From: Candidatus Peregrinibacteria bacterium CG_4_9_14_0_2_um_filter_41_14
GTDB lineage: Bacteria > Patescibacteriota > Gracilibacteria > UBA1369 > UM-FILTER-41-14
NCBI GenBank assembly: GCA_002788755.1
Contig: PFRW01000050.1
Location: 1 to 52,070 of the forward strand
Length of the DNA stretch: 52,070 nt
Reading direction: 5' to 3'
Made by a program: the position numbers and the translations under genes. This document shows positions 11,008 through 52,070 of this stretch, piece after piece. The notes under the pieces are model-generated. The model made no database searches. It had not been told where the DNA came from and saw only the letters and a program-made list of their open reading frames with translations. Each line of letters begins with the position of its first letter. The stretch's first letter is position 1.

Positions 11008-11061
11008 AGGTATTGGTTCTATTTATCTAGTAATTCTAGCATAAATAGAGCTCAAAGTCTA

Positions 11062-17446: not shown

Positions 17447-17507
17447 ATTTGTTGCTATGGGTATCTCTATATTGTACCATATTTTTCGATAATTGTTAGA
17501 ATAAAAT

Positions 17508-18662
17508 ATGTTTGAGTTTGAGATTAAAACTAAATCTAAAAATACTGCTGCGCGAACAGGTCAATTTGTTTTGCCGCGTGGCACTATTAAAACGCCTGTA
17601 TTTATGCCGTGCGGCACTAAAGGCATGGTAAAAACAATGCTTCCGGATGAGCTTAAGGCACTGGGTGTGGAGATTATTTTGGGAAATACTTATCATTTAT
17701 ATTTGAGGCCGGGTGAAAAGTTAATTGCACAAGAAGGCGGTTTACCAAAATGGAACAACTGGAATGCACCAATGCTATCGGACTCGGGAGGGTTTCAGGT
17801 TTTTTCTTTGCAGGGTACCCGTAATGATTCTGGTAAGTCGTTGATTAAAATTGATGAGGATGGCGTGGAGTTTAGGTCGTATTTAGATGGTTCAAAACAT
17901 TATTTTACGCCGGAGAAGGCCGTAGAAATTCAGTCGAAAATTGGTGCCGATATTATGATGGCTTTTGATGAGTGCTCCGCTGCTAATGTAACTAAAGATT
18001 ACGCACGAGCCGCCATGGGGCGGACACACCGCTGGTTTAAAAGATGCTACAAGCGACATGATGAGTTAGAGATGGGGGCCCCCACTAAACTGCCACAGGC
18101 TCTGTTTCCGATTGTACAAGGAGGAATGTTTGCGGATTTACGAACGGAGTCAGCTACATTTTTAAACGGATTTGATGCGCCAGGTGTGGCAATTGGTGGT
18201 TTGTCTGTTGGAGAAACTAAGGAGCAGATGTTGGCAATGTTGGATGTTGTGATGCCGATTTTGAATGATGATCGACCAAGGTATTTAATGGGTGTGGGGT
18301 CGCCGGATGATTTAATTGAAGGTGTGGCGCGCGGGGTTGATATGTTTGACTGCGTTTTACCCACAAGGCTGGCGAGACATGGTGCTTATTGGGATCAATT
18401 TGGTCGCCAAAATATTAAGCTGGAGCAGAATAGAGACGATAAGCGCCCACTAATGGAAGGGTGTGACTGTTCTACTTGTCAGCAGTTTGAACGAAGCTTT
18501 ATACGCCATCTATTTGTAGAAAAGGAAATTACGGGGCTGCGCTTATTAACAATTCATAACTTGCGCTACCTCACAAGATTAATGGAACAAATACGAGAAG
18601 CAATTGATAGGCAAGAATTTGACCAATTCCGCCAGCAGTTTTGGTTAAAATGGCGAGATTAG
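17508..18662 (+). CDS. tgt: tRNA-guanine(34) transglycosylase
   Basis: LSDSGGFQV catalytic region, GGLSVGE and the zinc site CDCSTC...H. 384 aa. Confidence 0.95.
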   Translation: MFEFEIKTKSKNTAARTGQFVLPRGTIKTPVFMPCGTKGMVKTMLPDELKALGVEIILGNTYHLYLRPGEKLIAQEGGLPKWNNWNAPMLSDSGGFQVFSLQGTRNDSGKSLIKIDEDGVEFRSYLDGSKHYFTPEKAVEIQSKIGADIMMAFDECSAANVTKDYARAAMGRTHRWFKRCYKRHDELEMGAPTKLPQALFPIVQGGMFADLRTESATFLNGFDAPGVAIGGLSVGETKEQMLAMLDVVMPILNDDRPRYLMGVGSPDDLIEGVARGVDMFDCVLPTRLARHGAYWDQFGRQNIKLEQNRDDKRPLMEGCDCSTCQQFERSFIRHLFVEKEITGLRLLTIHNLRYLTRLMEQIREAIDRQEFDQFRQQFWLKWRD

Positions 18663-18716
18663 ATTTTTATAATATTGCTATAATGCTAAAGTGAATGCCA
18701 ACTGTAATTAAAAATT

Positions 18717-19289
18717 ATGATTGGATATTTGAAAGGAAAAATTGTTCATATGGAAGCCAGAACAATTACGATTTTAACTGGTAGCGGTGTTGGCTATAGG
18801 GTTTTTGCGCCACAATCTTTATTATCTGCACAAGACATTAATATGGGAAATGAGGTTGAACTCTATATCTACACCCATTTTCGCCAAGACACTTTTGAGC
18901 TTTATGGATTTATGGAGAACTCGACTCTGATTTTCTTTGAGTCGTTAATTAGTATTAATGGTGTTGGACCAAAATTGGCGATGGATATATTGGCGGCGCC
19001 TATCCATAAAGTCCAAGAAGCAATTCAGGCTGAGGACACTAGATTCTTGCAGTCTATTAAGGGGCTTGGCAAAAAAACTTCAGAGCGGATGATTTTGGAG
19101 CTTAAAGGTAAATTACCTAAATTTTTGCATGATCGAGATGAAAATACTGTTCAGGTTTCGGATGATATTATTGAGGCATTGTTAAATTTGGGATACAAGC
19201 GTCGGCATGTTGATTTGGTTTTGGAGAAACTACCGGCCGACTTGGAAGCCGCTGAGGATATAATCAAATTTTTTCTACAAAACGTTTAA
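18717..19289 (+). CDS. ruvA: Holliday junction DNA helicase subunit RuvA
   Basis: MIGYLKGKI N-terminus, and helix-hairpin-helix motifs INGVGPKLA and IKGLGKKTSERM. Confidence 0.9.
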   Translation: MIGYLKGKIVHMEARTITILTGSGVGYRVFAPQSLLSAQDINMGNEVELYIYTHFRQDTFELYGFMENSTLIFFESLISINGVGPKLAMDILAAPIHKVQEAIQAEDTRFLQSIKGLGKKTSERMILELKGKLPKFLHDRDENTVQVSDDIIEALLNLGYKRRHVDLVLEKLPADLEAAEDIIKFFLQNV

Positions 19290-19363
19290 AGCTTGTAAAA
19301 GCGGTTTACGCGGTCGTAACTGGATAACATCTTGCCTTGCTGTAAATTTATTGCCGAAAACAA

Positions 19364-19391
19364 TTGCCTCATATCAATCTGGTCATATAAT
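19364..19391 (+). promoter_or_regulatory. sigma70-type promoter
   Basis: TTGCCT (19364-19369), a 16-nt spacer, then TATAAT (19386-19391), 32 nt upstream of the ATG at 19424. Confidence 0.55.
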
Positions 19392-19423
19392 GACATTAAT
19401 AAAAAATTTAAATAAAAACACAA

Positions 19424-20479
19424 ATGACACACCTCGATACTCTTCCCAAAGTTCAGGAATTGATTAATAGTTTATTGATCGTTTTGTCCGAGAAAGAAAA
19501 GTATATTGTGGAAAATCGCTTTAGCTTGAATGATCATCCACGCTTAACGTTAGAAAAGATTGGTGAAAAATACAACGTAACGCGAGAGCGCATCCGCCAA
19601 ATTGAAAAAAATGCATTACGCAAATTATCACGAAATGTGAACAATACACAGTTACGTGATTTGACCTCTATGGCACTGCAAATTTTGGAAGATAATGGTG
19701 GCGTAGTCAGTGAAAAAATGATGGTAAATGAAATGTTAAAACTAGCTGATAGCAAGGAAGGTATTGATGTGAGCAGTTTAAAATTAACTATCGATTTAGA
19801 TAAAGGTCTAGTGCGTGAGCATAACACAATCCGGTTTCGCCCTTTTTGGCGTTTGGTAGATCTAAAGCCACGTGATATTCGCAAGGCATGTGATGCGGTA
19901 AAAAAGGAATTGAAGAAAAATGAAAAAGTAATGAGTGCAGCAAAACTAGCAACACATTGCCAAGAAAAAAATGGAATTGCGTGTGCAAATGAAGCATTTA
20001 TAAAATCGGCCGCTCGCTTAGATCGTGACTTGAAGGTTGTTTCCGACGGTGTAGGTTTAGCAAGTTGGCGTGATATCAATCCAAAAACACTGCGTGATAA
20101 AATCTTCTATGTCTTTAATGAAATGAAGAAGCCACTGCATTACATCGATATTTCTAATCAAATTACAGAGCTTAGTTTTGATAATAAATCAGTTAATACA
20201 CAGGCTGTACATAATGAACTAATTAGATACGATGAGTTTATTTTGATTGGTCGTGGTATTTACGCCTTAAAATTTTGGGGATATGAAGAAGGGACAGTTG
20301 CTGATGTGATTGAAAAAGTTTTGATTGAACACGGTGAACTTGAACGTGATGAAATCGTGGAAAAGGTATTAGAAAAGCGCCAAGTCAAAAAAATCACAAT
20401 TTTGCTAAACCTAAAGAATAAAGATCAATTTACTAAAACTAAGACTGATAAGTACAAACTGACAACAGCAGCTAAGTAA
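19424..20479 (+). CDS. DNA-binding protein: sigma-70 region-4-like HTH plus C-terminal HARE-HTH/winged-helix domains
   Basis: LTLEKIGEKYNVTRERIRQIEKNALRKL is a textbook sigma region 4.2 HTH. I see no region 2. The C-terminal ...PLHYIDISNQI...VHNELIRYDEFILIGRGIYALKFWG fits HARE-HTH. Confidence 0.6.
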   Translation: MTHLDTLPKVQELINSLLIVLSEKEKYIVENRFSLNDHPRLTLEKIGEKYNVTRERIRQIEKNALRKLSRNVNNTQLRDLTSMALQILEDNGGVVSEKMMVNEMLKLADSKEGIDVSSLKLTIDLDKGLVREHNTIRFRPFWRLVDLKPRDIRKACDAVKKELKKNEKVMSAAKLATHCQEKNGIACANEAFIKSAARLDRDLKVVSDGVGLASWRDINPKTLRDKIFYVFNEMKKPLHYIDISNQITELSFDNKSVNTQAVHNELIRYDEFILIGRGIYALKFWGYEEGTVADVIEKVLIEHGELERDEIVEKVLEKRQVKKITILLNLKNKDQFTKTKTDKYKLTTAAK

Positions 20480-26026: not shown

Positions 26027-28927
26027 ATGGAACATAATAATCTTGGTACCGAGAGTTTACCTACTAATAAAGTACCCGTAAATAATACATTACACGTACC
26101 TGTTGAAAATCCAGGTAAGCACCTTGTAAAACTTGGTGAATGCAATTTCGCAGTGCAAATTACGGATAAAGGTAATGTAATAATTTTAAGTGATAGGACA
26201 GATCATGCTGTTGCAGTTAATAAGAAGAACTTTGAAATTGCAAAAGTACAATTTAACGAAGACGGTGAAGTTACACTTGTGGATAATGCTCAAGTACTTA
26301 ATGGTAACTTAGTAGATGTTGATGAAGATGCTGGAAAGATTGAGTTTGACTTTGGATATAAACGCGGCCGTTACAGCTTAATAGCAGTTTATAAGGAAGA
26401 TAAAAAAGGATCTGAAGTAGTTGTTGAATCGATTAATGAGGAAATACAAAAAGTTGTGGCAAAGACTGAAAAAGTTTCAGAACTGTTGCAATCTGGCGAT
26501 AGTCAATACGGTATCGATATTAGAAATGGCGTTTTACGAGAATGCTTATCGATTCATACTGATAACTATGGTGCGTATTTAACCAACGTTTCGGATACGC
26601 CAGGTCAAACAACTTATATGCTAGAAGTACTTCGCCCTTTAACAAGTGAAGAGGCTACAGCTGAAACAGCAACGCCACGCGAAGACCGTAGGATTACCGG
26701 TCCGATTACAATAACTGTAACTGATTCTGTTTCTGAAGGCATTAAATTGATCACAGCAGATTCACTAAAACAGGGTAAGCACCAACAAGTCATGATCTCT
26801 AATCATGGCAAGAAAATTGAATTAAATGGAGAAATCACTAATGATGCAATGGATTTCACTATTAGTGTTGCGGTAGATGGTACAATAAATATTGTATCAA
26901 ATACAGAATTACGCACCTTTCATCATGCAAAATCTGCAATGGAATCTACAGTGTTACGAGGAGAGAAGGAAAATGATACGCAATCAATTATTCAGCCGCC
27001 AACTGAACCTCCAACTCAACCACAAATTATGCATACTATTGATAAATCCCATGTAGTTGGTGAATCGCGCGAATTAACGCAAATTGGCGAAACAATTAAT
27101 GTGGTATTGCAAAACGGTGTGGAAATGTTAGTGACGATTGGTGATGACGATTACCATGTTATCCAAGAAGAAGGTGCAGACAGGCTAACGGTTACTGATT
27201 TGCAAAATAATCAGCTGACACAATTAAGCCCATCTACCGACTTCCGTGTTGGTACGACGTTAAGCTCTAATAATGGTGACGCAAAGGTTGAGCTAAAAGT
27301 TCGTACAAATGATAATGGTTTGCCCGTTGTTAGTATTACTAAACTTGCCGGTATTGTAAGTTATTTGGTTGCAGATAATAGTCCTCAGCCACAAACTGTT
27401 GATATACCTACGCCACCAGAGCCAACATTAGATGAATTACAACCAGAACGTGTAAGTGTTGATCTAAAGGCAAATCAAGCGCAAATAGGAATTGATCTTA
27501 GTTATGGGATACAAACTTTGTATTTGGGAAGCCAAAACCATATTATTTACTTAAGACGTATTACTGACGATAGATATAGTATTCAAATTCGCGATGAATC
27601 AGATGCCACCAAAAAACATACTTACTACGTTGCCGAGATTACTGTTTCACGAGATAGAAATGGCAAACCAATACTATGCAACTTGGGAGATAGTACGGAG
27701 GCTCTATTTGTAAATGTTAATACAATCGATATTAAATTTCATGACTTAGATTTTTCTTTATGCCTAGCAGATGATGGTACTTGGGAAATTGAAGCTAATT
27801 GTGACTTAAAAACAATATATTATTTTGCCCCAAATACACCAAAATCAGAAGTTTGTGACTTAAGAACACCAAACGACCTTGACGCCAAATTAGCAGATGG
27901 TGAACCCGTATCAGACTATAATCCTAGCTCATATTTACCACGTGGCGATCAAAAAGATCCATTGGTTAGAGATAAAACATACCGTGAATTAACTATGGGG
28001 AATAATACTGATGAGACAGCAAAAACAAGAATGGAGGCGGCATATCAATCAATAAAATTGCATTTGACTAGACTAAACGTGGAGAGCCCTTCTGAAGACG
28101 ACGTATTAGGTTGGGGACGTATACTTGCCGACATTGATAAAAATGACAATGCAAGTAAAGTTAATTATTTGGCAGATGTTCTTGGTCTCAATAATCGCAA
28201 GAAATCATTAATTAATGAGCTTAATATAATTAGTAGTAACGTCTCAATATATTACCAAGCACATCAAAATAATATCAAGCATGCAAAAGGTCAAATTGCT
28301 GCATCGGAAGAGATTGTGGCACGATGGGAACATCAGGTGAGTTATTTATTTAAGATACTTGGAGCAACACAAATTGTGGAACCTACTGAACTGGTAAAAT
28401 TTGCAGAATTTGTAGCGGACAAGGCAAAAAGCCAAACCGAAGTTGAGTTGCATGAGACAATTAAAAATCATCTTGGTATAAAGGAACCAAAAATGAATAC
28501 ACTTGCAAAAATGTGGCGCTCTCTTTTCCCAAGTAAGGCCAAGCAAGCTGAAGCAAATAACATAAAATTATTGCAGCATAAGTTAAACAGCATTTTGCAA
28601 ATGACGTCTCAACTAGAAAAAAATAGAGATTATATTAGAAAGACAGAACTAAACTCAATTAAGCCAGTATTTGAATTTATGGGAAAGGTATCTAGTACTA
28701 ACTTTGATAAAGTTATTAAAATGGCTAATGAAAACTATGGGTTTGCCGTTTTAAATAAAAAATTTGGTGATCCAAGTGATCCAACGTATGCAAAAATAGC
28801 TAATGATTTACGTACGATGGAAATGGGCTTTCCCGACGAATTTCCAGCGACTACCAGAGATGGTATCGATGTCAAAATTGTATATTCTAAATTTGAAACG
28901 CCAATACTGGTAGTCGAAGATTTTTAA
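26027..28927 (+). CDS. large hypothetical protein (966 aa), no signal peptide or TM helix
   Basis: Uninterrupted ATG-initiated ORF that is visibly more AT-rich than its neighbours. The N-terminal ~620 aa look like reiterated beta-rich modules separated by P/Q/T linkers. The C-terminal ~300 aa are helical and Lys-rich. Confidence 0.7.
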   Translation: MEHNNLGTESLPTNKVPVNNTLHVPVENPGKHLVKLGECNFAVQITDKGNVIILSDRTDHAVAVNKKNFEIAKVQFNEDGEVTLVDNAQVLNGNLVDVDEDAGKIEFDFGYKRGRYSLIAVYKEDKKGSEVVVESINEEIQKVVAKTEKVSELLQSGDSQYGIDIRNGVLRECLSIHTDNYGAYLTNVSDTPGQTTYMLEVLRPLTSEEATAETATPREDRRITGPITITVTDSVSEGIKLITADSLKQGKHQQVMISNHGKKIELNGEITNDAMDFTISVAVDGTINIVSNTELRTFHHAKSAMESTVLRGEKENDTQSIIQPPTEPPTQPQIMHTIDKSHVVGESRELTQIGETINVVLQNGVEMLVTIGDDDYHVIQEEGADRLTVTDLQNNQLTQLSPSTDFRVGTTLSSNNGDAKVELKVRTNDNGLPVVSITKLAGIVSYLVADNSPQPQTVDIPTPPEPTLDELQPERVSVDLKANQAQIGIDLSYGIQTLYLGSQNHIIYLRRITDDRYSIQIRDESDATKKHTYYVAEITVSRDRNGKPILCNLGDSTEALFVNVNTIDIKFHDLDFSLCLADDGTWEIEANCDLKTIYYFAPNTPKSEVCDLRTPNDLDAKLADGEPVSDYNPSSYLPRGDQKDPLVRDKTYRELTMGNNTDETAKTRMEAAYQSIKLHLTRLNVESPSEDDVLGWGRILADIDKNDNASKVNYLADVLGLNNRKKSLINELNIISSNVSIYYQAHQNNIKHAKGQIAASEEIVARWEHQVSYLFKILGATQIVEPTELVKFAEFVADKAKSQTEVELHETIKNHLGIKEPKMNTLAKMWRSLFPSKAKQAEANNIKLLQHKLNSILQMTSQLEKNRDYIRKTELNSIKPVFEFMGKVSSTNFDKVIKMANENYGFAVLNKKFGDPSDPTYAKIANDLRTMEMGFPDEFPATTRDGIDVKIVYSKFETPILVVEDF

Positions 28928-42484: not shown

Positions 42485-43195
42485 CTACAACAACAACCCC
42501 ATAAACGGCTTAAACGTCTCGTGATACTGCTTGGAATAGGCTAGGGCAAAAATGGAATTGCCGCTGATGGTGACGACAAAGACTTCGTTGATTTTGGCTT
42601 TGTGGTTGAGGTAGAAGGAGTTGTCGCCAAATTGATTGGTTTCGTTTACATCGATGCTGGTTATGGTTTTGGCTTGGGTTTTGATTTGGGTATAGAGTTT
42701 GCGGGCGTCTTGTTGATTTTTGAGCGTAAATTCGTAGACGGCGCCGAGGACATTTTTATTTGCGCCTTCACCAAGAACCAGCTGACCAAGGGCAACGTCA
42801 TCAGGGTTAACGTCTGTTTCAATCACATCAAAAACTTTGCCGCTAAAATTTACCGGTTGGTACTTAATATTAGGAATGTCGAGAGAAGGCAGTAAATCAA
42901 CAACTTTTTGGCTAACTTTTACACTGACGCCGCTAATTTGAGTATCGTCGTTAACGGGCAAATCGATGTTTTCTACAGTTTCGGTTACAGGAGTGGTGTC
43001 TGTAATTGGCTCAATATCCTTGATTTCGTCGAAAGATGCGGGAGGAGTGCTGTCTAAATTATCTAAATTGGTTAAGAGATTGGCGCTGGCACTGCTAGGA
43101 TACAGCTTGGACAAGTAATCTTGCGTGACAAGTTCGGCGGTAATACTTAAAACAATTACGGCAAAGATAATCGAAAAGATGGTAAACTTTTGCAT
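42485..43195 (-). CDS. membrane-anchored extracytoplasmic hypothetical protein
   Basis: N-terminal anchor FTIFSIIFAVIVLSITA. It begins 4 nt after the nusG stop on the same strand. I recognise no family. Confidence 0.55.
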   Translation of the reverse strand: MQKFTIFSIIFAVIVLSITAELVTQDYLSKLYPSSASANLLTNLDNLDSTPPASFDEIKDIEPITDTTPVTETVENIDLPVNDDTQISGVSVKVSQKVVDLLPSLDIPNIKYQPVNFSGKVFDVIETDVNPDDVALGQLVLGEGANKNVLGAVYEFTLKNQQDARKLYTQIKTQAKTITSIDVNETNQFGDNSFYLNHKAKINEVFVVTISGNSIFALAYSKQYHETFKPFMGLLL

Positions 43196-43199
43196 AGGT

Positions 43200-43745
43200 C
43201 TATTTCTTTTTAACTTGTGTGAACTCTAGTTCCACAGGTGTTTCGCGACCGAAAATGGTAATAAGGACCTTAACTTTACCTTTTTCATGATCAACTTCCT
43301 TAACATTGCCTTCGTAATTTTGGAATGGACCATCCAAGACAGTAACTTGATCCCCTTCTTGAAAATCGATTTTGAATTTAGGTTGGCTTTTGCCCATATG
43401 TCTTTCAACAACACGCCACTCTTCCGGCGATACCGGTACAGGGATTGTACCTGCGCCCACAAAGCCGGTAACGTTGGGTGTATTACGAACCACGTACCAA
43501 GAATCATCGTTTACGGTCATTTCGATAAGCACATAACCGGGGAAGATTGTACGTTCAACCTCTTTTGGTTGACCGTTTTTCATGATAATTTGCTTTTCTT
43601 TTGGAACGACAACACCAAAAATTAACTCTTGCATGTTCATAGACTCGATACGTTGTTCCAATGCTTTTTTTACAGCGTCTTCGTAACCGGAATAAGTATG
43701 AATTACATACCAGTTTCGTCCTGTATTAGCGGCTTGTTTAGCCAT
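43200..43745 (-). CDS. nusG: transcription termination/antitermination factor NusG
   Basis: NGN domain WYVIHTYSGYE and KOW motif GDQVTVLDGPFQNYEGNVKEVD. Confidence 0.95.
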   Translation of the reverse strand: MAKQAANTGRNWYVIHTYSGYEDAVKKALEQRIESMNMQELIFGVVVPKEKQIIMKNGQPKEVERTIFPGYVLIEMTVNDDSWYVVRNTPNVTGFVGAGTIPVPVSPEEWRVVERHMGKSQPKFKIDFQEGDQVTVLDGPFQNYEGNVKEVDHEKGKVKVLITIFGRETPVELEFTQVKKK

Positions 43746-43765
43746 AGAAAATGAGAGTTAAAATG

Positions 43766-44110
43766 CTAGTTTGCTGGTTGTTCAGCTGGGGTAGTTTCTG
43801 CTGGGGTGGGTTCGGGTACAACAACTGTGTTTGTTGTTGTTACTCCTTCGGCGTCAACGCCTACGCTAAGATCGCCTGCGTCGATGGTTGGTGTTTCGGT
43901 GGCGGGGGCTTCTTGACCAAATCCGCTTGTAATACTATAGTTTACGACTGCTTGGTAGCCTGCGTTAAAAACATAGTCTAACCCACCAATAACTAAGGCA
44001 AGTACAACTGTAAAGACAACAGTATACGTGGTCAATTTAATGGTTTGTTGCATTGTCGGCCAAGATACTTTGCTAAGTTCCTTAAAGCTATTTTTGATGT
44101 AGTTGATCAT
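43766..44110 (-). CDS. secE: preprotein translocase subunit SecE with Thr/Pro/Glu-rich C-terminal extension
   Basis: FKELSKVSWPT followed by a single TM helix (YTVVFTVVLALVIGGLDYVF), positioned directly upstream of nusG. The ATG at 44110 is preferred over the track GTG at 44116. Confidence 0.8.
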   Translation of the reverse strand: MINYIKNSFKELSKVSWPTMQQTIKLTTYTVVFTVVLALVIGGLDYVFNAGYQAVVNYSITSGFGQEAPATETPTIDAGDLSVGVDAEGVTTTNTVVVPEPTPAETTPAEQPAN

Positions 44111-44242
44111 GTGCACAGGTTAAGTTGATCTAATATTAAAAAGCCCGCTTTTGGGCTTGTTCTATTTAATTATAGCGATTTAAGTTATTTATGCAATCTT
44201 TTTTTAAGTGCCTGAGTTTGGATTGGCTTTGTACCATAGCTG

Positions 44243-44251
44243 TGTTATAAT
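44243..44251 (+). promoter_or_regulatory. extended -10 element (TGtTATAAT) upstream of the pilin-module locus
   Basis: TG at 44243-44244 and TATAAT at 44246-44251, 26 nt before the ATG at 44278. Confidence 0.45.
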
Positions 44252-44277
44252 AACTAGATTAAATTAGCTTAAACAAT

Positions 44278-45186
44278 ATGAAATTTGGGCTGAGAAGTTT
44301 ACTTTTGACTATGGCAACAGTACTGACATTATTTGCTGGAAACCTCTACATGGTGCCGCAAACAAATGCTTTTTTTGACTTGGCGACAGATCAATATACG
44401 CAGTTTTTGCCGGGTACAACAGGTAGTACATTGCAAGAGCGTGCCGGTAATCTTTTAAGTAGAGCGACGAATATTGTGCGGCTAGTGATTGCACCAATTG
44501 CCATTTTAATTATGTTAACCGGTAGCATTAGGATGGTAATGGCTCGTGGTGATGAAGAGGCATACAAAAAAGGCACACGGACACTGGTATATGGTACGGC
44601 CGGTATTGCCATTGTGGCTTTATCCGGTGATCTTGCACAACTGTTATCACCGGAAAGTGGGGGTCTGTTGGGTAGTGACGCTGTATTGCGTGAACGTGGT
44701 CTTATTTTTGATAACACACTGAGGATCGTTTTAACTTTTGTGAAATATGTGGCGGGAACGGTTGCCGTTGCTATGTTAGTGCGTATTGGATTCCGATTGG
44801 TGGCTTTTAGTGCCTCGGATGACGAATTGGCGGAAGACAAAAAGAATATGGGTTTAATTGCTGCCGGTCTTGTAGTTCTGATTTTTAGCGATACCTTAAT
44901 TAGAAAAGTTTTATACAAGGTCGACTCGCCTGTAGATGGTGCTGTTAGTGCTGATTTACCACAAGCTATGAAAGAGCTGGTGGGGTTTATTAATTTAATT
45001 GTGACTTTTGTGGGGCCAATTGCCCTGATTACTTTAGTGGCGGGTGGCGTGATGTATGCTGCTTCCGGTGTTAACGAGGAACTGCAAGCTAAGGCCAAAA
45101 AGATGATTGGCGTTTCGCTGGGAGGGATCATTTTAATTTATGGTGCCTTTGCGATTGTAAATACCTTTATTGTTGGTCGATTTTAA
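44278..45186 (+). CDS. polytopic membrane protein made of three tandem VirB2/TrbC-like pilin-hairpin modules
   Basis: Signal peptide ending ...PQTNA. The modules lie at about aa 62-123, 147-212 and 231-298. Each is a hydrophobic helix, then a loop such as ARGDEEAYKKG, SASDDELAEDKKN or ASGVNEELQAKAKK, then a second hydrophobic helix. The last ends AFAIVNTFI. Confidence 0.65.
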   Translation: MKFGLRSLLLTMATVLTLFAGNLYMVPQTNAFFDLATDQYTQFLPGTTGSTLQERAGNLLSRATNIVRLVIAPIAILIMLTGSIRMVMARGDEEAYKKGTRTLVYGTAGIAIVALSGDLAQLLSPESGGLLGSDAVLRERGLIFDNTLRIVLTFVKYVAGTVAVAMLVRIGFRLVAFSASDDELAEDKKNMGLIAAGLVVLIFSDTLIRKVLYKVDSPVDGAVSADLPQAMKELVGFINLIVTFVGPIALITLVAGGVMYAASGVNEELQAKAKKMIGVSLGGIILIYGAFAIVNTFIVGRF

Positions 45187-45193
45187 TCAAATT

Positions 45194-46231
45194 ATGTTGA
45201 AACTGTTTAAAACAATACCGTTAATCGTCATGCTGGCTTGCAGCCTGTTTGTAACCACAGTGCCTAGTGCCTTGGCTTTTAAGATTGATGTTAATGTAGT
45301 GCCAAAAGAAGATAACACGCCTCTAATTGATGAAAAAACTTCGCCACTACAATTTTTTGAGAACATTGGAAATGCGACAGATTTAAATAATATCAAAAAT
45401 GAAACCGGTGCAAACGTTGTGAGCGAAGGTGGTCTTGGCCAAATTACGGGACTGCTAAGTAAAATCATTAATATTATTAAATGGGCGATTGGTGGTGTAG
45501 CGGTAATATTTACAATTTGGACGGCGGTGCGCATGCTAACGGCAACCGATGAGGCTGAAGCAGTAATGACTGATGCAAAAAAGGGACTCACCTATTTATT
45601 AATTGGACTATTTTCGGTTTTTGCAATTGAGATTTTTGTGAATAATGTGCTGGTGATTGGTGATGGCAACTTTTTGGGCAGTGTGGATGCGGCAAGAAAT
45701 GCTGCCGGGGCGGCTAGTGCCGAAATTAGGGGCATCTATAACTTAGGTGAAATATTTTTGGGGATTTTTGCGGTGGGAATCATCATCTTTAATGGCTTTA
45801 AAATGGTGACCAATGCCGGCAATGATGAAGCGCTGGACAATGCCAAAAAGAATATTGGCTGGGGTATTGCCGGAATTGTATTGGTTGGTCTATCGGAGCT
45901 GATTGTGAAAGACATTTTGTTTGTAGATGCAGGGCAAGGTGGCTTTGATATTGAAAGAGCCAAACAACTAATTGTCCAGTTAACTAATTTTATTTCCGGA
46001 TTTATTGCGGTTACGGCGGTAGTCATGTTTATTTATGCAGGTTACTTATACATCTTTTCGGCCGTTGGTGATGACAATACCGAAAAAGTTAAGCAAGCAA
46101 TTTTGGGTGCTATTATTGGCATAATTATTGCTGCCGGTGCTTATGGATTAGTTAATACTTTTGTAAAATTTGAAGCACCAACATTTTCAGAGGTAATTCA
46201 AGGACAAATTGACAGTGGATTGGGGAATTAA
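45194..46231 (+). CDS. second polytopic protein with three pilin-hairpin modules
   Basis: Signal peptide MLKLFKTIPLIVMLACSLFVTTVPSALA. The three module loops are TATDEAEAVMTDAKKG, NAGNDEALDNAKKN and SAVGDDNTEKVKQA, each flanked by hydrophobic helices. The last module ends GLVNTFV. The track start at 45170 is TTG. Confidence 0.65.
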   Translation: MLKLFKTIPLIVMLACSLFVTTVPSALAFKIDVNVVPKEDNTPLIDEKTSPLQFFENIGNATDLNNIKNETGANVVSEGGLGQITGLLSKIINIIKWAIGGVAVIFTIWTAVRMLTATDEAEAVMTDAKKGLTYLLIGLFSVFAIEIFVNNVLVIGDGNFLGSVDAARNAAGAASAEIRGIYNLGEIFLGIFAVGIIIFNGFKMVTNAGNDEALDNAKKNIGWGIAGIVLVGLSELIVKDILFVDAGQGGFDIERAKQLIVQLTNFISGFIAVTAVVMFIYAGYLYIFSAVGDDNTEKVKQAILGAIIGIIIAAGAYGLVNTFVKFEAPTFSEVIQGQIDSGLGN

Positions 46232-46281
46232 GTAACGAAGCAAATCTTGGTTTCGTCAACTGGTTTTATGATTTAATACTC

Positions 46282-46311
46282 GCCCTTCCTTTCCATAAAG
46301 GGGCTTTTCTG
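46282..46311 (+). terminator. possible intrinsic terminator or attenuator between the pilin-module genes and the giant gene
   Basis: GCCCTT, an 11-nt loop, then AGGGGC (6 bp including one G-U pair), followed by TTTTCTGTT. Confidence 0.4.
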
Positions 46312-46341
46312 TTATACTTATAAGATTTATTTGAGGAAATT

Positions 46342-49300
46342 ATGCGTAAATTACTTTCTTTAATCGGTAAGTTCCTAACTGGAGCCATTCTTGCAACCAT
46401 GCTAATGGTGGCATTTGGTGGTACTGAGATTGTGGCAGCGCAAGATCTTTGCGGGTCTATCTCTGGTGACTTTGGGGGGTTTATTGATTGTAATGATCAA
46501 ATTACTTCTTTTACTCAGTTTTCGGGTGGCTTGGAGCCGGTGGCGGCTACGGGGCTAGATCCAAATTTAACGAGAACAGATAACGCGAGAGATTTTATTA
46601 AAAGTATTGTTAACTTTGCGCTGAGCTTTCTTGGTTTAATTGCGCTGGTCATTGTGATTTACGGTGGCTTTTTGTATGTAACCGATGCCGGTGCGGGTGA
46701 ACAGTCCGAAAAAGGGAAAAAGGCGATCATGTATGCGATTATTGGTATTTTGATTATTTTGAGTTCGTTTGCAATTGTAAACACGGTGCTAAAGGCGCCG
46801 GGTGACATTGGCACAAGTGGGCAGCCGGGTGGTCCGGGACAAACCAATGTGCAACAGTTAGCAAACTACAACAGTGCGGCCGAGCAAACTAAAGATGCAA
46901 CCTTGGAATTTATTAGAGCTTATGAAAATTACTTTAATCAAAGTGTACTGCTGCAAAAAATTATGACTTACAAGGCAGATAAGCTAACAACCAGACAAGA
47001 CATAATTGACTACCTTCAATTTGTACGTCGCAATTTAGCTGATCTTGAACGTCGGAATGGCACATCAGAGGGGACGGCTAATCTTTCGCAAGCATCGCTG
47101 GCGGCACGAATTACGATTGATAATGTTGTGGACCCGTCGTTGCAATTAATGGAAGACACGATTCAAGCCGAAACAACCGAGGAAGCCTATGTTAAGGCTT
47201 ACCGTAATGGTATTGGGAGCTTTATTGATGATTCACGCAAACTTGTGGACGATGTGGTAGAAGGTGTGTCTTCTGCCGGTACTGCAATTAAGAGTGTCTT
47301 TACGGGCGGTGATGCCGGTTTAAATAAGCGTGCTGAAGATATTAACTGTTACTTACCACCGGAATTCCGCGCTGCAGATAGATCCTTTGATTGTAAAGGA
47401 GCGCTAGAAAGCACGAAGACGAACAAAGGTAGTGATATTATCGACAGTGTAAATGCCTATATTGAAGACATTGTGATTAAGAATGGCATTAACGTTGATT
47501 ACAATGACCGGCTTGAGGTGATTGTTAATAGCACACGTGATATTCAAGATAACCTATTAAACTTTGGGACTGTGCAAGTAACTCCGGAAGTGGATCGAAC
47601 CTTTACAGAGGTAATAAATTTATTGGGCGATGCTCGTGCGGAAAATATTGCATATCAAATTAATGTTGGTCCAAATGAGTTTGGCAGTAACCCAAATGTG
47701 ACAGCATCGGAAGCATTTCAACGAACAGCCGTTGTCCGTGATTTATTATTAAAATTTAATGATCTATATGAGCTGCTCAATAATATTGATTTTGTGGCGG
47801 CCTTTGTGACAGCAACAGCAACAAGAGGTAATGCGCCACTGGTGGTGCAATTTGATGGCTCCGGCTCATACGATCCTGCCGATCAATCTTTAACAGATGA
47901 AAACTACGAATGGGATTTAGATGGTGATGGTCAATTTGGACGCATTAATCCGGACAACGTGATGGACTGTAAAGAAGAGAAACATGCAGTTGTCACTTGT
48001 ACATATAAACAACCCGGTTCATACCGTGTAGCCTTGCGTGTTACCAGTAACCGTCCGGAACAAATTGCACCGGGACTTGCCTATATTACCGTAAGCGTGC
48101 AAGAGCCGGTGGCTAAAATCGATTTAAAGACTGTAATTGATAGTGAGGAAATAGTTGTGCGCAGTTATAATGCATCCGGTTTTATTGAACGGGATATTGA
48201 CGAAGTGAGAGTAACCTTAAATGAGGCATCCGCCGGCGAAGGCATGGTGTTTGATGCCCGTGGTACGGCGCTAAATTCCGAAGGCAAACAAATTGTGCGC
48301 TACAGTTGGGATTTTGGCGACAGAACCGCCAAGCTAACCGGCAGTGAACAAGAGGCCGGGCGCGTGGCACATGTTTATACTCAAAATGGAACATATAGTG
48401 TGGTGTTGGAAGTAGAAGATGAAACAGGTAATAAGGATCGTAAAATTTTCCGTGTAGTTGTCACTTCTTTGGCGGCAAATTTGCGAGTTAGTGAATTTAG
48501 AGGCGACCTAAATACCGAATTTACTTTTGATGCCGGCCGCTCTAAGAGTGATGGTGGTCAAATTACACAATACAATTGGTCGATTGCCGGCGTGGATGAT
48601 TTGGATGCGGAAAATGCGCCGACCTTAAAACACCGATTTGAAAGTCCGGGCACATATACTGTGACCGTGCAAATTCAAGATTCGGCCGGTAATGCCGACA
48701 CGGTTTCTACCGAAGTACTGGTAGAGTCGCAAACGCCAAAGGCATTCTTTACGGTTGAGTTTATTCCAAGTCAACCAAGTACGGTCATTTTGGATGCTTC
48801 CAATAGTTATGATCCGGACGAAGGTGATGTACTTAGTTTTCAATGGACCGTATTTAATGCCCGCGAAGGTACTGATTTTGAGGTATTATCCGGCAAACTA
48901 AAAGGCCCTCGGGCTGATGCCGAAAAACTTAAACTCAAATTTAACAAACAACGTAACTATGTTGTGGAACTTAAAGTAGCGGACCAATACGAAGATGATC
49001 GTTTACGAAAAGAAACCAGCTTACAAGCAGATGTAAATATTCAATCACTAGTAGATGTGACAATAGGTACGGATCATCAACAAGCAGCCATTTTAAGAGA
49101 CGGTAAAGCTGATGTCACTCTGCATTTTGTCTCTGACTTTGCCAAAACCATAGAAGTGGATTTTGGCGATCAGTCGCAAGAGGCGGGCGCTTTTACAAAT
49201 GGTAGCTTTAAGGTTAATCATACTTATACGCAGTCTGGTTTATACCGTGTAGTTGCGCATGCTTTTGGACCGGAAGGTGATGAAAACAGTGTCACAACAA

Positions 49301-51093
49301 CTGTGGCCGTTGGCCGTGGTGACGCAATTATTCCGGTTGTGGAAATTGACTATAATGGGGTTACATACCACTTGGATGATACCTTACCGGTAATAAGCCG
49401 TAATCAATCCGTAAAATTTAGTGCCGGAAAATCATTAAACAGTAATGGCACAAAAACGGGTCTGGAATATAGTTGGAACTTTGGAGATGGGCGCTTTGCC
49501 GATGGCGCAGCGGCCACTCATACATTTACGGACTTGGCACCAAATCCACCCGGATACTTTGAAGTAACACTGCAAGCGGGCAATAGCCTTGGTCAAAGTG
49601 AAACTATTAATTTTAACTTAAAAGTAGCCAGTGTGCCGCCGGTTATTAAAGATATTGTAGTAACGCCTCTTGTCGAAAATCCGGTGACACCATTTAATGT
49701 GCGTGTAGAAGCACAAGGTGCTGCCGATCCCGATGGATCAATTAAAGAATACCGTTTCTATTATTTTTCTGTTTTAGATCCGGGGCGCATCTTAGGAACT
49801 AAAATTGTGAAAGACCCCACAGCCGAGTTAGAAGTAGATACCTTTGGCGTTGAAGGTGACCGTAATGAATTCGCTTTTTGTGTCGATATTAAAGATAACG
49901 AAGGCAACACAGTTAACTGCCAAGAACGCTTTAAATTGGAAGACCTACCAAAACTAACTGCCACAAACGGCAAAAATGATCCGCCGGTTGCAAGTTTTGT
50001 TGTTGATCGAACCAATGTATTTGTTGGTGAAGAGATCAATTTTAGTAGTACTTCGTCAGATCCCGACGGTGAGATTGTTAGTTATCAATGGGATATTGAC
50101 GGTGATGGTAGTTTTGCCAACGATGAGCCAAAAACACAAAGTGCACTCGTACAAACATATACTCGTCGATCTGCAGAAACAGGTTATCGTGTGCGTCTCA
50201 AAGTTGTTGACGACAAGGGTGCGACTGCAATTTCGGAACCGGTAACAGTCTTTGTAGATAGTATCTTAAAGGCACCAACTGCCGCATTTACAACTAAAAT
50301 AACAAATAGCAAAGTTGATTTTGTGAATAATTCTCGTGCCGATACAAGTAAGGGTGGTGAGCTGGTCGTTAATAATTGGGATTTTGATTTGAGCCGTGAT
50401 AGCGATGGTGATGGCGACAAAACAAATGATGTTGATGCCACCGGTGCGACGCCAAGCCATACTTATGTTGAGGCTGGCACATATCAAGCTAAACTAGCGA
50501 TTGCCGATAATGAAGGCACTGAAGATAGCGTGATTAACACAATTATCATTACCAATGTATCCGCAGCAGGCCCAGCCATTAATAATGGTAAAAGCGCAGC
50601 AGGTTTAAGAGCGGTACTTGATACTGAACCGGCAATTGACCCGGTAACAGATACAATCTACCTGGAAGGTGCCGAAGCCAATGTTACTTTCTTTTTTGAT
50701 GCCAGTTTAGGTGACATTAAAAGTTATATTATTGATCGAAATATCTTCTTTGACACTAATGGTGGTCAACCAAATACGCCTGGTGATGGCATTCGCAATA
50801 ATGATGCTGACTTTATAACGCAAAATCCCCTAGTTCCTTACACAAGTAATTTCCGTCCGGAATGGGAACCTGTTGAAGTTCAGCTAACAGTTGTAGATGC
50901 TAATGGCAATGTTAGCCAAGATCGCGTTAAGGTAACATTTGCTAAACCGGGGCTAGGGCGAGCCACATTAAGTAATGTAAGTAGCACGATGCTAATAATC
51001 ATTCTTGCGATAGTAGGTGGACTTGGTGTATTATTATATGTTGGGTCTTTACTACTTTACCGGCCGAAACGCGGCAAACGTAAATTAAATTAA
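46342..51093 (+). CDS. giant surface protein (1583 aa): signal peptide, one pilin-hairpin module, helical region, about 10 PKD-like domains, C-terminal TM anchor
   Basis: GAGGA Shine-Dalgarno site 5 nt upstream. The module at aa ~83-152 reads FIKSIVNFALSFLGLIALVIVIYGGFLYVTDAGAGEQSEKGKKAIMYAIIGILIILSSFAIVNTVL. PKD signatures recur (YEWDLDGDG, YSWDFGDR, YSWNFGDG, YQWDIDGDG, ...GTY.V.L.V.D..G). The C-terminus is MLIIILAIVGGLGVLLYVGSLLLY followed by RPKRGKRKLN. Confidence 0.85.
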   Translation: MRKLLSLIGKFLTGAILATMLMVAFGGTEIVAAQDLCGSISGDFGGFIDCNDQITSFTQFSGGLEPVAATGLDPNLTRTDNARDFIKSIVNFALSFLGLIALVIVIYGGFLYVTDAGAGEQSEKGKKAIMYAIIGILIILSSFAIVNTVLKAPGDIGTSGQPGGPGQTNVQQLANYNSAAEQTKDATLEFIRAYENYFNQSVLLQKIMTYKADKLTTRQDIIDYLQFVRRNLADLERRNGTSEGTANLSQASLAARITIDNVVDPSLQLMEDTIQAETTEEAYVKAYRNGIGSFIDDSRKLVDDVVEGVSSAGTAIKSVFTGGDAGLNKRAEDINCYLPPEFRAADRSFDCKGALESTKTNKGSDIIDSVNAYIEDIVIKNGINVDYNDRLEVIVNSTRDIQDNLLNFGTVQVTPEVDRTFTEVINLLGDARAENIAYQINVGPNEFGSNPNVTASEAFQRTAVVRDLLLKFNDLYELLNNIDFVAAFVTATATRGNAPLVVQFDGSGSYDPADQSLTDENYEWDLDGDGQFGRINPDNVMDCKEEKHAVVTCTYKQPGSYRVALRVTSNRPEQIAPGLAYITVSVQEPVAKIDLKTVIDSEEIVVRSYNASGFIERDIDEVRVTLNEASAGEGMVFDARGTALNSEGKQIVRYSWDFGDRTAKLTGSEQEAGRVAHVYTQNGTYSVVLEVEDETGNKDRKIFRVVVTSLAANLRVSEFRGDLNTEFTFDAGRSKSDGGQITQYNWSIAGVDDLDAENAPTLKHRFESPGTYTVTVQIQDSAGNADTVSTEVLVESQTPKAFFTVEFIPSQPSTVILDASNSYDPDEGDVLSFQWTVFNAREGTDFEVLSGKLKGPRADAEKLKLKFNKQRNYVVELKVADQYEDDRLRKETSLQADVNIQSLVDVTIGTDHQQAAILRDGKADVTLHFVSDFAKTIEVDFGDQSQEAGAFTNGSFKVNHTYTQSGLYRVVAHAFGPEGDENSVTTTVAVGRGDAIIPVVEIDYNGVTYHLDDTLPVISRNQSVKFSAGKSLNSNGTKTGLEYSWNFGDGRFADGAAATHTFTDLAPNPPGYFEVTLQAGNSLGQSETINFNLKVASVPPVIKDIVVTPLVENPVTPFNVRVEAQGAADPDGSIKEYRFYYFSVLDPGRILGTKIVKDPTAELEVDTFGVEGDRNEFAFCVDIKDNEGNTVNCQERFKLEDLPKLTATNGKNDPPVASFVVDRTNVFVGEEINFSSTSSDPDGEIVSYQWDIDGDGSFANDEPKTQSALVQTYTRRSAETGYRVRLKVVDDKGATAISEPVTVFVDSILKAPTAAFTTKITNSKVDFVNNSRADTSKGGELVVNNWDFDLSRDSDGDGDKTNDVDATGATPSHTYVEAGTYQAKLAIADNEGTEDSVINTIIITNVSAAGPAINNGKSAAGLRAVLDTEPAIDPVTDTIYLEGAEANVTFFFDASLGDIKSYIIDRNIFFDTNGGQPNTPGDGIRNNDADFITQNPLVPYTSNFRPEWEPVEVQLTVVDANGNVSQDRVKVTFAKPGLGRATLSNVSSTMLIIILAIVGGLGVLLYVGSLLLYRPKRGKRKLN

Positions 51094-51103
51094 CCTTTCT
51101 ACT

Positions 51104-52070
51104 ATGGATGAAGATACAAATACCAATTCAAATCAACAACCGATCGAACCGGAAATGATTGATGTGCGTGAAACCCCTCAATATAAGGAGTATGAAGCGC
51201 AACAAGTAGCTGGCTCCGGATTATTGTTTGAAGACAACCCCGCTTTAAAGATGCAAGGCAATGTAAGTGCCGTGCCGGATGAGACTGTTGAAGAGGCTGT
51301 GGCTGCCGTGGAACAAATGGCTCCCGTGGAACCTGTGGAACCTGTGTCTCCCGAGCAACCCGTGGCTGCCGAGCAACCCGTGGTCACCGAGCAACCCGTG
51401 GCTCCCGTGGAACAAATGGCTCCCGTGGAACCTGTGTCTCCCGAACAACCCGTGGCTCCCGAGCAACCCGTGGCTGCCGAGCAACCCGTGGTCACCGAGC
51501 AACCCGTGGCTCCCGAACAACCCGTGGCTCCCGTGGAACAAATGGCTCCCGTGGAACCTGTGTCTCCCGAACAACCCGTGGCTCCCGAGCAACCCGTGGT
51601 CACCGAGCAACCTGTGGCTCCCGAACAACCCGTGGCTCCCGTGGAACAAATGGCTCCCGTGGAACCTGTGTCTCCCGAGCAACCTGTGGCTCCCGAGCAA
51701 CCTGTGGTCACCGAGCAACCTGTGTCTCCCGAACAACCCGTGGCTCCCGTGGAACAAATGGCTCCCGAACAACCTGTGTCTCCCGAACAACCTGTGTCTC
51801 CCGTGGAACAAATGGCTCCCGTGGAACCTGTGTCTCCCGAGCAACCCGTGGCTCCCGAGCAACCTGTGGTCACCGAGCAACCTGTGTCTCCCGAACAACC
51901 CGTGGCTCCCGTGGAACAAATGGCTCCCGTGGAACCTGTGTCTCCCGAGCAACCCGTGGCTGCCGAGCAACCCTTGGCTCCCGTCGTTCATCAGCATAAA
52001 AAAGGGCACCTACTTGGTATTATGCTGGGTCTAATTGCGGTTTTTGCGATTTTGGGAATTGGCTTTTCGG
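51104..52070 (+). CDS. repeat-rich membrane protein, partial (continues beyond the window): acidic N-terminus, about 38 V-A-P-E-Q-P-type hexapeptides, TM helix
   Basis: Not in the ORF track because there is no stop before the window end. My translation from the ATG at 51104 is MDEDTNTNSNQQPIEPEMIDVRETPQYKEYEAQQ...VEQMAPVEPVSPEQPVAPEQPVVTEQP...HQHKKGHLLGIMLGLIAVFAILGIGFS. Differences between units fall mainly at third positions of this frame (GAG/GAA, CCC/CCT). Confidence 0.75.
   Translation, partial: MDEDTNTNSNQQPIEPEMIDVRETPQYKEYEAQQVAGSGLLFEDNPALKMQGNVSAVPDETVEEAVAAVEQMAPVEPVEPVSPEQPVAAEQPVVTEQPVAPVEQMAPVEPVSPEQPVAPEQPVAAEQPVVTEQPVAPEQPVAPVEQMAPVEPVSPEQPVAPEQPVVTEQPVAPEQPVAPVEQMAPVEPVSPEQPVAPEQPVVTEQPVSPEQPVAPVEQMAPEQPVSPEQPVSPVEQMAPVEPVSPEQPVAPEQPVVTEQPVSPEQPVAPVEQMAPVEPVSPEQPVAAEQPLAPVVHQHKKGHLLGIMLGLIAVFAILGIGFS
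51299..51991 (+). repeat. in-frame 18-nt tandem repeat array with higher-order units of 54-126 nt
   Basis: The basic unit is GTGGCTCCCGAGCAACCC and variants (GTGTCTCCC..., GTGGTCACC..., ATGGCTCCCGTGGAACCT). I counted about 38 units plus one 9-nt half unit at 51335-51343. Super-repeat blocks starting at each GTGTCTCCC are 90, 126, 108, 108, 54, 108 and 54 nt. Confidence 0.9.

Follow-up and report, generated by a model that had tools for sequence, protein, structure and literature searches.

A predicted four-gene operon with eight VirB2-type pilin hairpins, conserved beside secE-nusG in Peribacteria/Peregrinibacteria-type Patescibacteria

The stretch of DNA analysed here (the window) comprises the 52,070 nucleotides (nt) of contig PFRW01000050.1 (assembly GCA_002788755.1) from Candidatus Peregrinibacteria bacterium CG_4_9_14_0_2_um_filter_41_14. 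Its final part carries a cassette of four genes on the same strand, called P1 to P4 below. P1 and P2 each encode three helical hairpins resembling the pilins of type IV secretion systems (T4SSs), P3 encodes one such hairpin and a series of PKD domains, and P4 a transmembrane (TM) helix, a further hairpin and PKD domains. As judged by sequence comparison, this is an operon of the core genome in Peribacteria/Peregrinibacteria-type Patescibacteria, very small bacteria that probably live attached to hosts, and its eight VirB2/T4SS_pilin-type hairpins are distributed among four proteins. The junctions between the genes are tight or overlapping. P2, for example, begins 7 nt past the P1 stop codon (an alternative TTG start is present at 45170). 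The four genes are:

44278-45186, + strand: P1, 302 amino acids (aa); Sec signal peptide, then three T4SS_pilin/VirB2-like hairpins (PF18895, 60.5 bits; hydropathy)
45194-46231, + strand: P2, 345 aa; signal peptide, then three hairpins (PF18895, 86.5 bits; TrbC, 26.8 bits)
46342-51093, + strand: P3, 1583 aa; signal peptide, one hairpin, all-alpha spacer, PKD array and C-terminal TM helix
51104-52070, + strand: N-terminal part of P4, with an ATG at 51104; the gene runs off the end of the window

The hairpins were assigned using profile hidden Markov models (HMMs) with the Pfam gathering cut-offs (26.6 bits for T4SS_pilin, PF18895, and 27.9 bits for TrbC/VirB2, PF04956). With whole proteins as query, PF18895 recognises three stretches in P1, three in P2 and one in P3 (29.9 bits). 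An earlier note on this DNA had described seven modules resembling VirB2/TrbC pilins, three in each of the first two genes and one at the N-terminus of the 1583-aa protein, and both the placement and the likeness are borne out by these matches. When the modules are taken singly, five of the seven pass the PF18895 cut-off alone, while TrbC/VirB2 passes for P2 module 3 only, the other modules remaining below threshold. The NCBIfam model NF045849 (Mbov_0395 pilin-like) also recognises P2 (45.2 bits, cut-off 40), with P1 and P3 below its cut-off. By curated HMM thresholds, the modules thus belong to the T4SS_pilin/VirB2-like family. In NCBI, their orthologues are labelled 'hypothetical', 'pilin' or 'TrbC/VirB2 family protein'. 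The modules, with the scores that each obtains alone, are:

44431-44649, + strand: P1 module 1; PF18895 34.8 bits; forms its own orthologous group (100%)
44689-44913, + strand: P1 module 2; PF18895 25.6 bits, just below 26.6; forms its own orthologous group (100%)
44950-45177, + strand: P1 module 3; PF18895 22.7 bits, TrbC 17.7 bits; forms its own orthologous group (100%)
45425-45658, + strand: P2 module 1; PF18895 43.8 bits
45713-45928, + strand: P2 module 2; PF18895 37.3 bits
45959-46177, + strand: P2 module 3; PF18895 34.3 bits, TrbC/VirB2 28.2 bits (cut-off 27.9)
46567-46797, + strand: P3 hairpin (module 7); PF18895 38.9 bits, TrbC 23.5 bits; the most conserved module

The seven sequences can be aligned in register, the one gap being an indel of a single residue; they are 15-23% identical and share a K.KK loop. 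In hydropathy plots each of P1 to P3 begins with a signal peptide, after which the hydrophobic helices come in pairs, and direct reading of the N-termini (MKFGLRSLLL in P1, MLKLFKTIPL in P2 and MRKLLSLIGK in P3) indicates ordinary Sec signal peptides. An AlphaFold2 model of P2, built with 41 homologues, contains three helical hairpins (helices 81-116/121-152, 164-206/211-242 and 253-288/293-323) with a mean predicted local distance difference test score (pLDDT) of 75.5. The predicted helices are 31-43 residues long and exceed a simple TM span.

In P3 the hairpin is followed by three further parts:

46816-47826, + strand: spacer between hairpin and PKD array, ~330 aa, predicted helical and fast-evolving
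47830-50961, + strand: PKD/Ig-like array (approximate bounds), defined by PKD_4, PKD and K319L-like_PKD matches
50989-51045, + strand: C-terminal TM helix (hydropathy), followed by a basic tail, RPKRGKRKLN

PKD_4 matches seven stretches of the array (215.9 bits). A search with the spacer (residues 159-495) returned no homologues and one with residues 1-520 only nine matches; the AlphaFold2 model of residues 1-520 obtained with these nine shows an all-alpha spacer at low confidence (pLDDT 51). Orthologues of P3 have the same layout, with a hairpin at approximately residues 80-160, a spacer of ~300 aa (range 181-490 aa, median 308) and a PKD array. The C-terminal TM helix and basic tail are not a core feature because they occur in only about half of the orthologues. 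In a clade of orthologues that do not have this helix, the proteins end in a conserved 'DKNIYFDT...EIKFK' domain.

The same contig reaches further in other assemblies, where P4 is 764 aa long (as assembled in the copy labelled L002). Its layout consists of a low-complexity N-terminus, predicted to be cytoplasmic, a TM helix, a helix-TAKKEDKPAKKKG-helix hairpin and six PKD domains. The divergent hairpin and the PKD domains lie just beyond the end of the window. A profile of the P4 hairpin (34 sequences, from 33 related loci and the window) was compared with the pilin-module profile using hhalign. The alignment covers 68 columns with a probability of 95.2%, an E-value of 2.5e-8 and a score of 41.3, compared with a score of 14.7 for the reversed module alignment and of at most 11.9 for 20 column shuffles. 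In addition, the P4-hairpin HMM matches accepted pilin modules in another lineage (E 3e-11 to 6e-11). P4 therefore carries a hairpin of the same type and the operon holds eight, arranged 3+3+1+1, so that the earlier total of seven has to be raised by one.

The N-terminal region of P4 contains an extended repeat:

51339-51983, + strand: tandem repeat with an 18-nt unit in 35.8 copies, encoding PEQPVA-type repeats in the predicted cytoplasmic N-terminus of P4

Among the other assemblies, four end inside this repeat, one has a gap of 100 N and one has 291 nt, compared with 885 nt in the window. Since assemblies break or collapse here, the number of PEQPVA copies is either unresolved by assembly or variable. 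The genes downstream of P4 gave no matches to T4SS-related families. They are not conserved in relatives, and the conserved unit is thus the four genes. In L002, two of these downstream genes (17349-18221 and 18211-19767) encode surface-type proteins, one with IG_AIR9 domains. Both proteins carry a C-terminal '(A)EV(Q/P)GNTGP' motif, a hydrophobic helix and a basic tail, a combination that resembles a sorting signal. Neither gene is conserved beside the cassette in other lineages.

To describe the distribution of the cassette we used one genome per GTDB species, giving 46 loci. These and three loci obtained separately were annotated with phmmer and hmmsearch together with flanks of ±10 kb. Nearly all of the 46 loci come from genomes labelled Candidatus Peribacteria, Peregrinibacteria or Gracilibacteria, and the rest carry generic or other labels of metagenome-assembled genomes. 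There are 45 homologues of P2 (~310-380 aa), all with PF18895. The four-gene order is found in ~40 species-level genomes at 28-47% identity and recurs as two successive three-hairpin proteins, a protein with one hairpin and PKD domains (1476-2038 aa) and a PKD protein (~700-850 aa). The full 3+3+1 pattern is present in 36 related loci as well as in the window; most of the others are truncated because their contig stops there. Three outlier loci (L053-L055) still lacked the canonical cassette when they were translated with the alternative genetic code (table 25).

The chromosomal position is equally constant. Next to the cassette, on the other strand, lies:

43200-44116, - strand: secE-nusG, a divergently transcribed syntenic anchor, with the same neighbours in nearly all related loci

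Where a locus reaches far enough, the cassette is nearly always divergent from the gene series secE-nusG-(236-aa open reading frame (ORF))-rplK-rplA; four loci have an insertion of 2-3 kb between secE and P1. Within the window, the GC content of the cassette is unremarkable and resembles that of the remainder. The earlier note had inferred a chromosomal locus that is probably not conjugative. The ~40 relatives with the same four genes beside secE-nusG and no VirB4 within ±10 kb agree with this and speak against a fragment of a mobile element. The 236-aa ORF between nusG and rplK (42485-43195, - strand) has an N-terminal hydrophobic segment and no Pfam match. It is syntenic in ~40 related loci; the secE-nusG-rplK-rplA cluster is otherwise universal, and the ORF is an insertion specific to this lineage.

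An all-against-all comparison of 259 modules from 37 genomes shows that the five best matches in other genomes share the same module position in 98-100% of cases. The P3 hairpin is the most conserved (mean of 98 bits between orthologues), and P1 module 3, P2 module 3 and the P3 hairpin are each other's nearest relatives. By this comparison the hairpins are ancient, non-interchangeable parts. Orthology that follows position in this way is a strong argument against an array for antigenic variation, and for a hetero-oligomeric assembly of fixed composition.

Related hairpins are also found well beyond this cassette. A search of 1.84 billion representative proteins with the seven-module profile gave 50,527 matches at E ≤ 1e-3, of which 5,350 reach E ≤ 1e-10 and 184 reach E ≤ 1e-30. 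Among the best 150 of the 50,527 matches, about 107 proteins have three matched stretches and 26 have four, with smaller numbers having two (2 proteins), five (4), six (8), seven (2) or eight (1). Some of the multi-hairpin proteins consist of nearly identical recent repeats. One locus in a different chromosomal context (L056, 9925-16481) encodes an 820-aa protein with eight hairpins. After it come one pilin on its own, a fusion of pilin and PKD (383 aa) and a protein of 718 aa that combines a low-complexity region on the cytoplasmic side with a TM helix and a PKD array; no VirB4 was found near this locus. In another (L055, 9738-16256) a protein of 2173 aa that bears one hairpin is embedded in an array of single pilins, and in a third (L054, 1-6389) hairpin fusions of 590 aa and 301 aa precede PKD proteins. 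Judging from these proteins, the chaining of hairpins and the hanging of large extracellular regions on them is a recurrent theme in the Candidate Phyla Radiation (CPR).

The window contains one further gene with a possible connection to the cassette:

9019-11007, - strand: VirB4-like ATPase (NCBIfam conju_CD1110, 371.9 bits, cut-off 325), the only T4SS ATPase in the window

This gene, correctly recognised as a VirB4 homologue in the earlier note, is separated from the cassette by 33 kb (~30 genes). Its neighbours are an S41 peptidase gene, a 149-aa ORF of no known family and gyrA/gyrB. The part of the CD1110 model that the protein matches begins at position 176, and an N-terminal domain is apparently missing. 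The 149-aa ORF, which encodes a soluble protein, lies immediately upstream (region 9019-11511, - strand) and may be a split TrsD-like piece. Neither this ORF nor a 497-aa ORF that also flanks VirB4 gave family matches. The S41 peptidase gene is convergent and overlaps the 3' end of the VirB4 gene by 4 nt. Among the annotated window ORFs, and likewise downstream of the locus, we detected neither a relaxase nor a coupling protein, VirB6 or integrase; the earlier note had stated their absence for the locus itself. The seven-module profile matches no other ORF of the window and, in particular, did not identify a single-module pilin beside VirB4.

The general kind of system is already known: it is that of the CPR VirB2-like pilin arrays of non-conjugative T4SSs. 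Southlakia epibionticum has an essential T4SS cluster with a series of predicted pilins (Wang et al. 2023, PMC10633639), and in the tables of that paper SEML1_0014-0019 are six single-hairpin PF18895 proteins. Quiñonero-Coronel et al. 2025 (PMC12102498) reported VirB2-like pilins in 1,948 assemblies, 1,135 of which have a pilin gene near virB4. They described 441 arrays of 2-11 pilin genes with a mean identity of ~25% and almost no relaxases, and proposed a non-conjugative role. According to the same paper, homologues of TrsD and VirB3 occur apart from virB4 in the class Gracilibacteria, where VirB6 cannot be detected. In a 2025 review (PMC12857230) the possible pilus of the monoderm CPR T4SS is given as an open question, with the speculation that this T4SS/pilus is an uptake conduit. 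T4SS pilins are also among the highly expressed genes of Paceibacteria during growth with hosts (PMC10936435).

The cassette resembles these Patescibacteria arrays (that of S. epibionticum, the 441 arrays and the 'Sec secreted array' of TM7x) in several ways. It has the same PF18895 matches with weak PF04956 similarity. Like the arrays, which consist of at least two adjacent divergent pilin genes, it is made up of adjacent divergent paralogues in a monoderm CPR genome (four genes with 3+3+1+1 hairpins). It is also accompanied by a chromosomal MPF-FATA-like VirB4 (by the CD1110 family match), with no relaxase or coupling protein seen nearby among the window ORFs scanned. The six pilin genes of S. 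epibionticum may be compared with the six shaft-type hairpins in P1 and P2. However, the published arrays are composed of separate small genes, mostly in Saccharimonadia and Microgenomatia (PMC12102498), whereas here three hairpins are fused in each of two polypeptides and two further hairpins are fused to PKD arrays. In addition, many published pilin genes are near virB4 (1135/1948, thus not universally), while the cassette is fixed beside secE-nusG and, at 33 kb, is not within ~20 coding sequences of virB4.

The cassette was also compared with other known systems. VirB2/TrbC (PF04956) and F-type TraA pilins likewise have a signal peptide, two hydrophobic helices and a short charged loop. These canonical pilins are, however, single-hairpin proteins of ~70-130 aa encoded in T4SS operons of diderms, while the proteins described here (302-1583 aa) are multi-module or fused, occur in a monoderm and are encoded away from T4SS genes. 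None of the four has a size of ~70-150 aa as expected of a single hairpin: P1 is 302 aa (three hairpins), P2 345 aa (three), P3 1583 aa and P4 ~764 aa. The Mbov_0395 family (NF045849) of the Mycoplasma integrative and conjugative element (ICE) is similar in that P2 exceeds the model cut-off and that both lineages are wall-less or monoderm; its members are single proteins (80-aa model) encoded beside VirB4 on a mobile ICE, in contrast to a core chromosomal operon without ICE genes. The modular type IV pilins PilB and PilC of Streptococcus sanguinis (PMC8179133, PMC9934059) follow the same design, a pilin module joined to a bulky adhesive module, but their fold and machinery are unrelated (class III signal peptide, prepilin peptidase and PilB ATPase), making this an analogy and not a homology. 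A type IV or sortase-assembled pilus was rejected on the grounds that P1 to P3 have ordinary Sec signal peptides and P1 to P4 have no LPXTG. Pam pili (bioRxiv 10.64898/2026.03.03.709456) are likewise CPR surface filaments with Ig-like domains thought to contact the host. Their system is a different one, in which Ig-like pilin folds are joined by donor-strand exchange and chaperone-like factors take part. A Pam pilus was also rejected: the PamR match of P3 (55.1 bits, cut-off 300) concerns a PKD domain only, and no Pam operon components are present.

Multi-hairpin fusions, hairpin-PKD fusions and a secE-nusG-linked cassette are unmentioned in PMC10633639, in PMC12102498 (whose main text mentions neither fusions nor PKD), in PMC12857230 and in full-text searches, although this is not proof of absence. 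The view of the earlier note that the locus is undescribed is overstated as regards its kind, which has been published (PMC10633639, PMC12102498, PMC12857230). What appears unreported in the literature searched is the architecture: triple hairpins joined covalently, modular pilins made of a hairpin and PKD domains, and a synteny fixed across the class in which orthology follows the module position.

From these features a mechanism can be proposed. P1, P2 and P3 would be exported by the Sec pathway using AXA-type signal peptides. Each hairpin would insert with both ends outside and with its mixed acidic/Lys-rich loop in the cytoplasm, a placement that would agree with the positive-inside rule. 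This both-ends-out hairpin is the established membrane topology of VirB2-type pilins. It is also the only one that would allow both concatenation through external linkers of 12-25 aa and an external location of the PKD arrays. Hydropathy fits the suggestion of the earlier note that the hairpins anchor extracellular PKD arrays. P4, which has no signal peptide, would reach the same topology by means of its uncleaved TM helix, the repeat-rich N-terminus remaining in the cytoplasm. In this way P1 and P2 would each supply three covalently linked hairpins, and P3 and P4 would each supply one hairpin carrying a long extracellular PKD/Ig-like array. Since the eight positions are separate orthologous groups predating the radiation of the lineage, we infer a single hetero-oligomeric helical bundle of fixed composition. 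The bundle could be a short pilus or a stalk from which the PKD arrays project as adhesins towards a host or partner cell. The cassette would then be the pilin/adhesin module of a dispersed, non-conjugative, monoderm-type T4SS, and its assembly or extrusion would be aided by the VirB4 encoded 33 kb away, which by analogy is a candidate assembly motor.

We consider this reading, in which the eight hairpins form one fixed hetero-oligomer with two kinds of PKD arm, serving as a T4SS pilin/adhesin module powered by VirB4, to have slightly better than an even chance of being correct. Within it, the identity and number of the modules, the topology signals, the synteny and the orthology by position are observed, while the hetero-oligomeric assembly, the dependence on VirB4 and the role as adhesin are deduced. 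The link with a T4SS and VirB4, which is drawn by analogy, is the most likely connection but is less certain than the rest of the explanation. Three points are counted in its favour: a CD1110-type VirB4 on the same contig, the location of the S. epibionticum pilins inside an essential T4SS cluster and the scattered nature of Gracilibacteria T4SS genes. The earlier note had taken the distance of 33 kb from VirB4 as a sign of independence from a T4SS. This argument loses its force because T4SS parts in Gracilibacteria are typically not clustered with virB4 (PMC12102498) and because the VirB4 gene is located on the same contig.

A number of observations weigh against the proposed pilin/adhesin module. 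In none of the relatives surveyed do the ±10 kb around the cassette contain VirB4 or another T4SS gene, so that the connection with VirB4 rests on co-occurrence on one contig together with analogy. The C-terminal TM anchor of P3 in the window would tether a tip-displayed adhesin back to the cell. The mutual arrangement of the hairpins in the P2 model is uncertain (predicted template modelling score, pTM, of 0.50). A sequence search of the PDB at E ≤ 10 with module profiles (7 and 49 sequences) returned matches at chance level only, and among them no solved VirB2, TraA or other pilin. Similarly, comparison of the P2 model with the PDB using Foldseek returned generic helical proteins (best E 0.17), a three-hairpin chain being a poor query for a 70-aa pilin. 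Finally, we know of no PF18895 protein shown by experiment to form a pilus, 'pilin' being the name of a computational family.

Several of these observations are accommodated if the organelle is independent of a T4SS, with the hairpins staying in the membrane as a static hetero-oligomeric platform that holds the PKD arrays as adhesins or as a surface coat. We regard this, in essence the idea of the earlier note and the main rival, as unlikely on balance, yet as an alternative to be taken seriously. It would be consistent with the absence of T4SS genes within ±10 kb in ~40 relatives and with the fixed housekeeping position by secE-nusG, and both ends of P3 are anchored in the window and in about half of the orthologues. 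The uncleaved TM helix and long cytoplasmic domain of P4 would also be unusual for an extruded pilin, and covalent triple hairpins have no known precedent among extruded VirB2 pilins. Against this, the hairpin family is otherwise tied to T4SS clusters (for example, the essential locus of S. epibionticum and the 1135/1948 assemblies with a pilin gene near virB4; PMC12102498), a VirB4 is present in the genome, T4SS genes are normally scattered in the class Gracilibacteria (PMC12102498) and the predicted helices of 31-43 residues are longer than a simple TM span. A bolder version is that the eight hairpins make up a closed hetero-oligomeric nanostructure, a VirB2-derived organelle no longer dependent on a T4SS, with concatenated hairpins as a pre-assembled stalk or base and hairpin-PKD proteins as the arms that bind the host. 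Beyond this cassette, the VirB2 hairpin would then be a widespread CPR anchor for giant surface proteins (for example, the 820-aa eight-hairpin protein and the 2173-aa fusion). This is speculative, and we think it doubtful.

The multi-hairpin proteins might instead form a membrane conduit, VirB6-like or channel-like, for uptake or exchange, with the PKD proteins docking it to the host envelope. The polytopic six-helix nature of P1 and P2, the reported absence of VirB6 homologues from the class Gracilibacteria (PMC12102498) and the speculation concerning an uptake conduit (PMC12857230) would all fit. This is nevertheless improbable: every helix pair matches the pilin model and not a channel family, and P1 and P2 have no similarity to TrbL/VirB6 or to transporter families at E ≤ 1 beyond weak, chance-level matches. 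The low identity between modules (15-23%, similar to the average of 25% in published CPR arrays; PMC12102498) might suggest an array of interchangeable paralogues for antigenic or host-range variation, as proposed for the VirB2 proteins of Bartonella and Anaplasma and suggested for CPR arrays. Interchangeable copies would not, however, keep a position-specific identity, and here the modules of any one position form a strict orthologous group in the 37 genomes compared (98-100%). The architecture of 3+3+1(+1) is also fixed, and fusion into single polypeptides prevents independent expression. A variation array is largely refuted by the position-specific orthology and is very improbable. Finally, the family name and the NCBIfam match derive from conjugative systems, and hydrophobic hairpins can give spurious HMM matches, so that a fragment of a conjugative element or ICE, or a generic TM hairpin recognised by chance, was also considered. 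Synteny in ~40 species, the absence of an integrase, relaxase or coupling protein and the window-like GC content speak against a fragment, while five modules pass curated cut-offs individually, all seven align in register, and the reversed and shuffled controls fail in the profile comparison. With the synteny survey and the threshold-passing HMM matches, we regard both as refuted and give them almost no credence. The earlier note had itself raised these two objections, and both fall away: similarity to the pilin profile is significant and the loci of relatives lie outside ICE/T4SS clusters.

Patescibacteria represent a large share of bacterial diversity and the way in which they contact their hosts is largely a mystery. 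In one genetically tractable species a T4SS and VirB2-like pilins are essential. To our knowledge, no T4SS pilus has yet been seen in Patescibacteria, and monoderm T4SSs were thought to lack pilins. Hairpins that occupy fixed positions, tolerate covalent chaining and anchor PKD arrays are what would be expected of neighbouring subunits in a surface-exposed assembly. The cassette would provide the first 'modular' VirB2-type pilins, in parallel with the modular type IV pilins, and P1 to P4 offer concrete targets for study in a whole class of uncultured bacteria.

Two promoter-like sites accompany the cassette. The first coincides with the extended -10 promoter of the earlier note:

44223-44251, + strand: promoter-like site TTGGCT-17-TG-TATAAT with an extended -10, 26 nt before the ATG of P1; consensus match only
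46290-46318, + strand: second, weaker promoter-like site TTTCCA-17-TG-TATACT in the 110-nt gap before P3; consensus match only

In the region scanned, nine such sites were found compared with 7.2 expected.

Elsewhere in the window, neither Pfam nor NCBIfam gave a meaningful match for a 966-aa ORF (26027-28927, + strand) or for the 497-aa ORF mentioned above (5790-7283, - strand), whose product has one TM helix, at its N-terminus. Directly after gyrA, a 409-aa protein (14249-15478, + strand) with CARDB, TSP3 and PKD domains is a further predicted surface protein.

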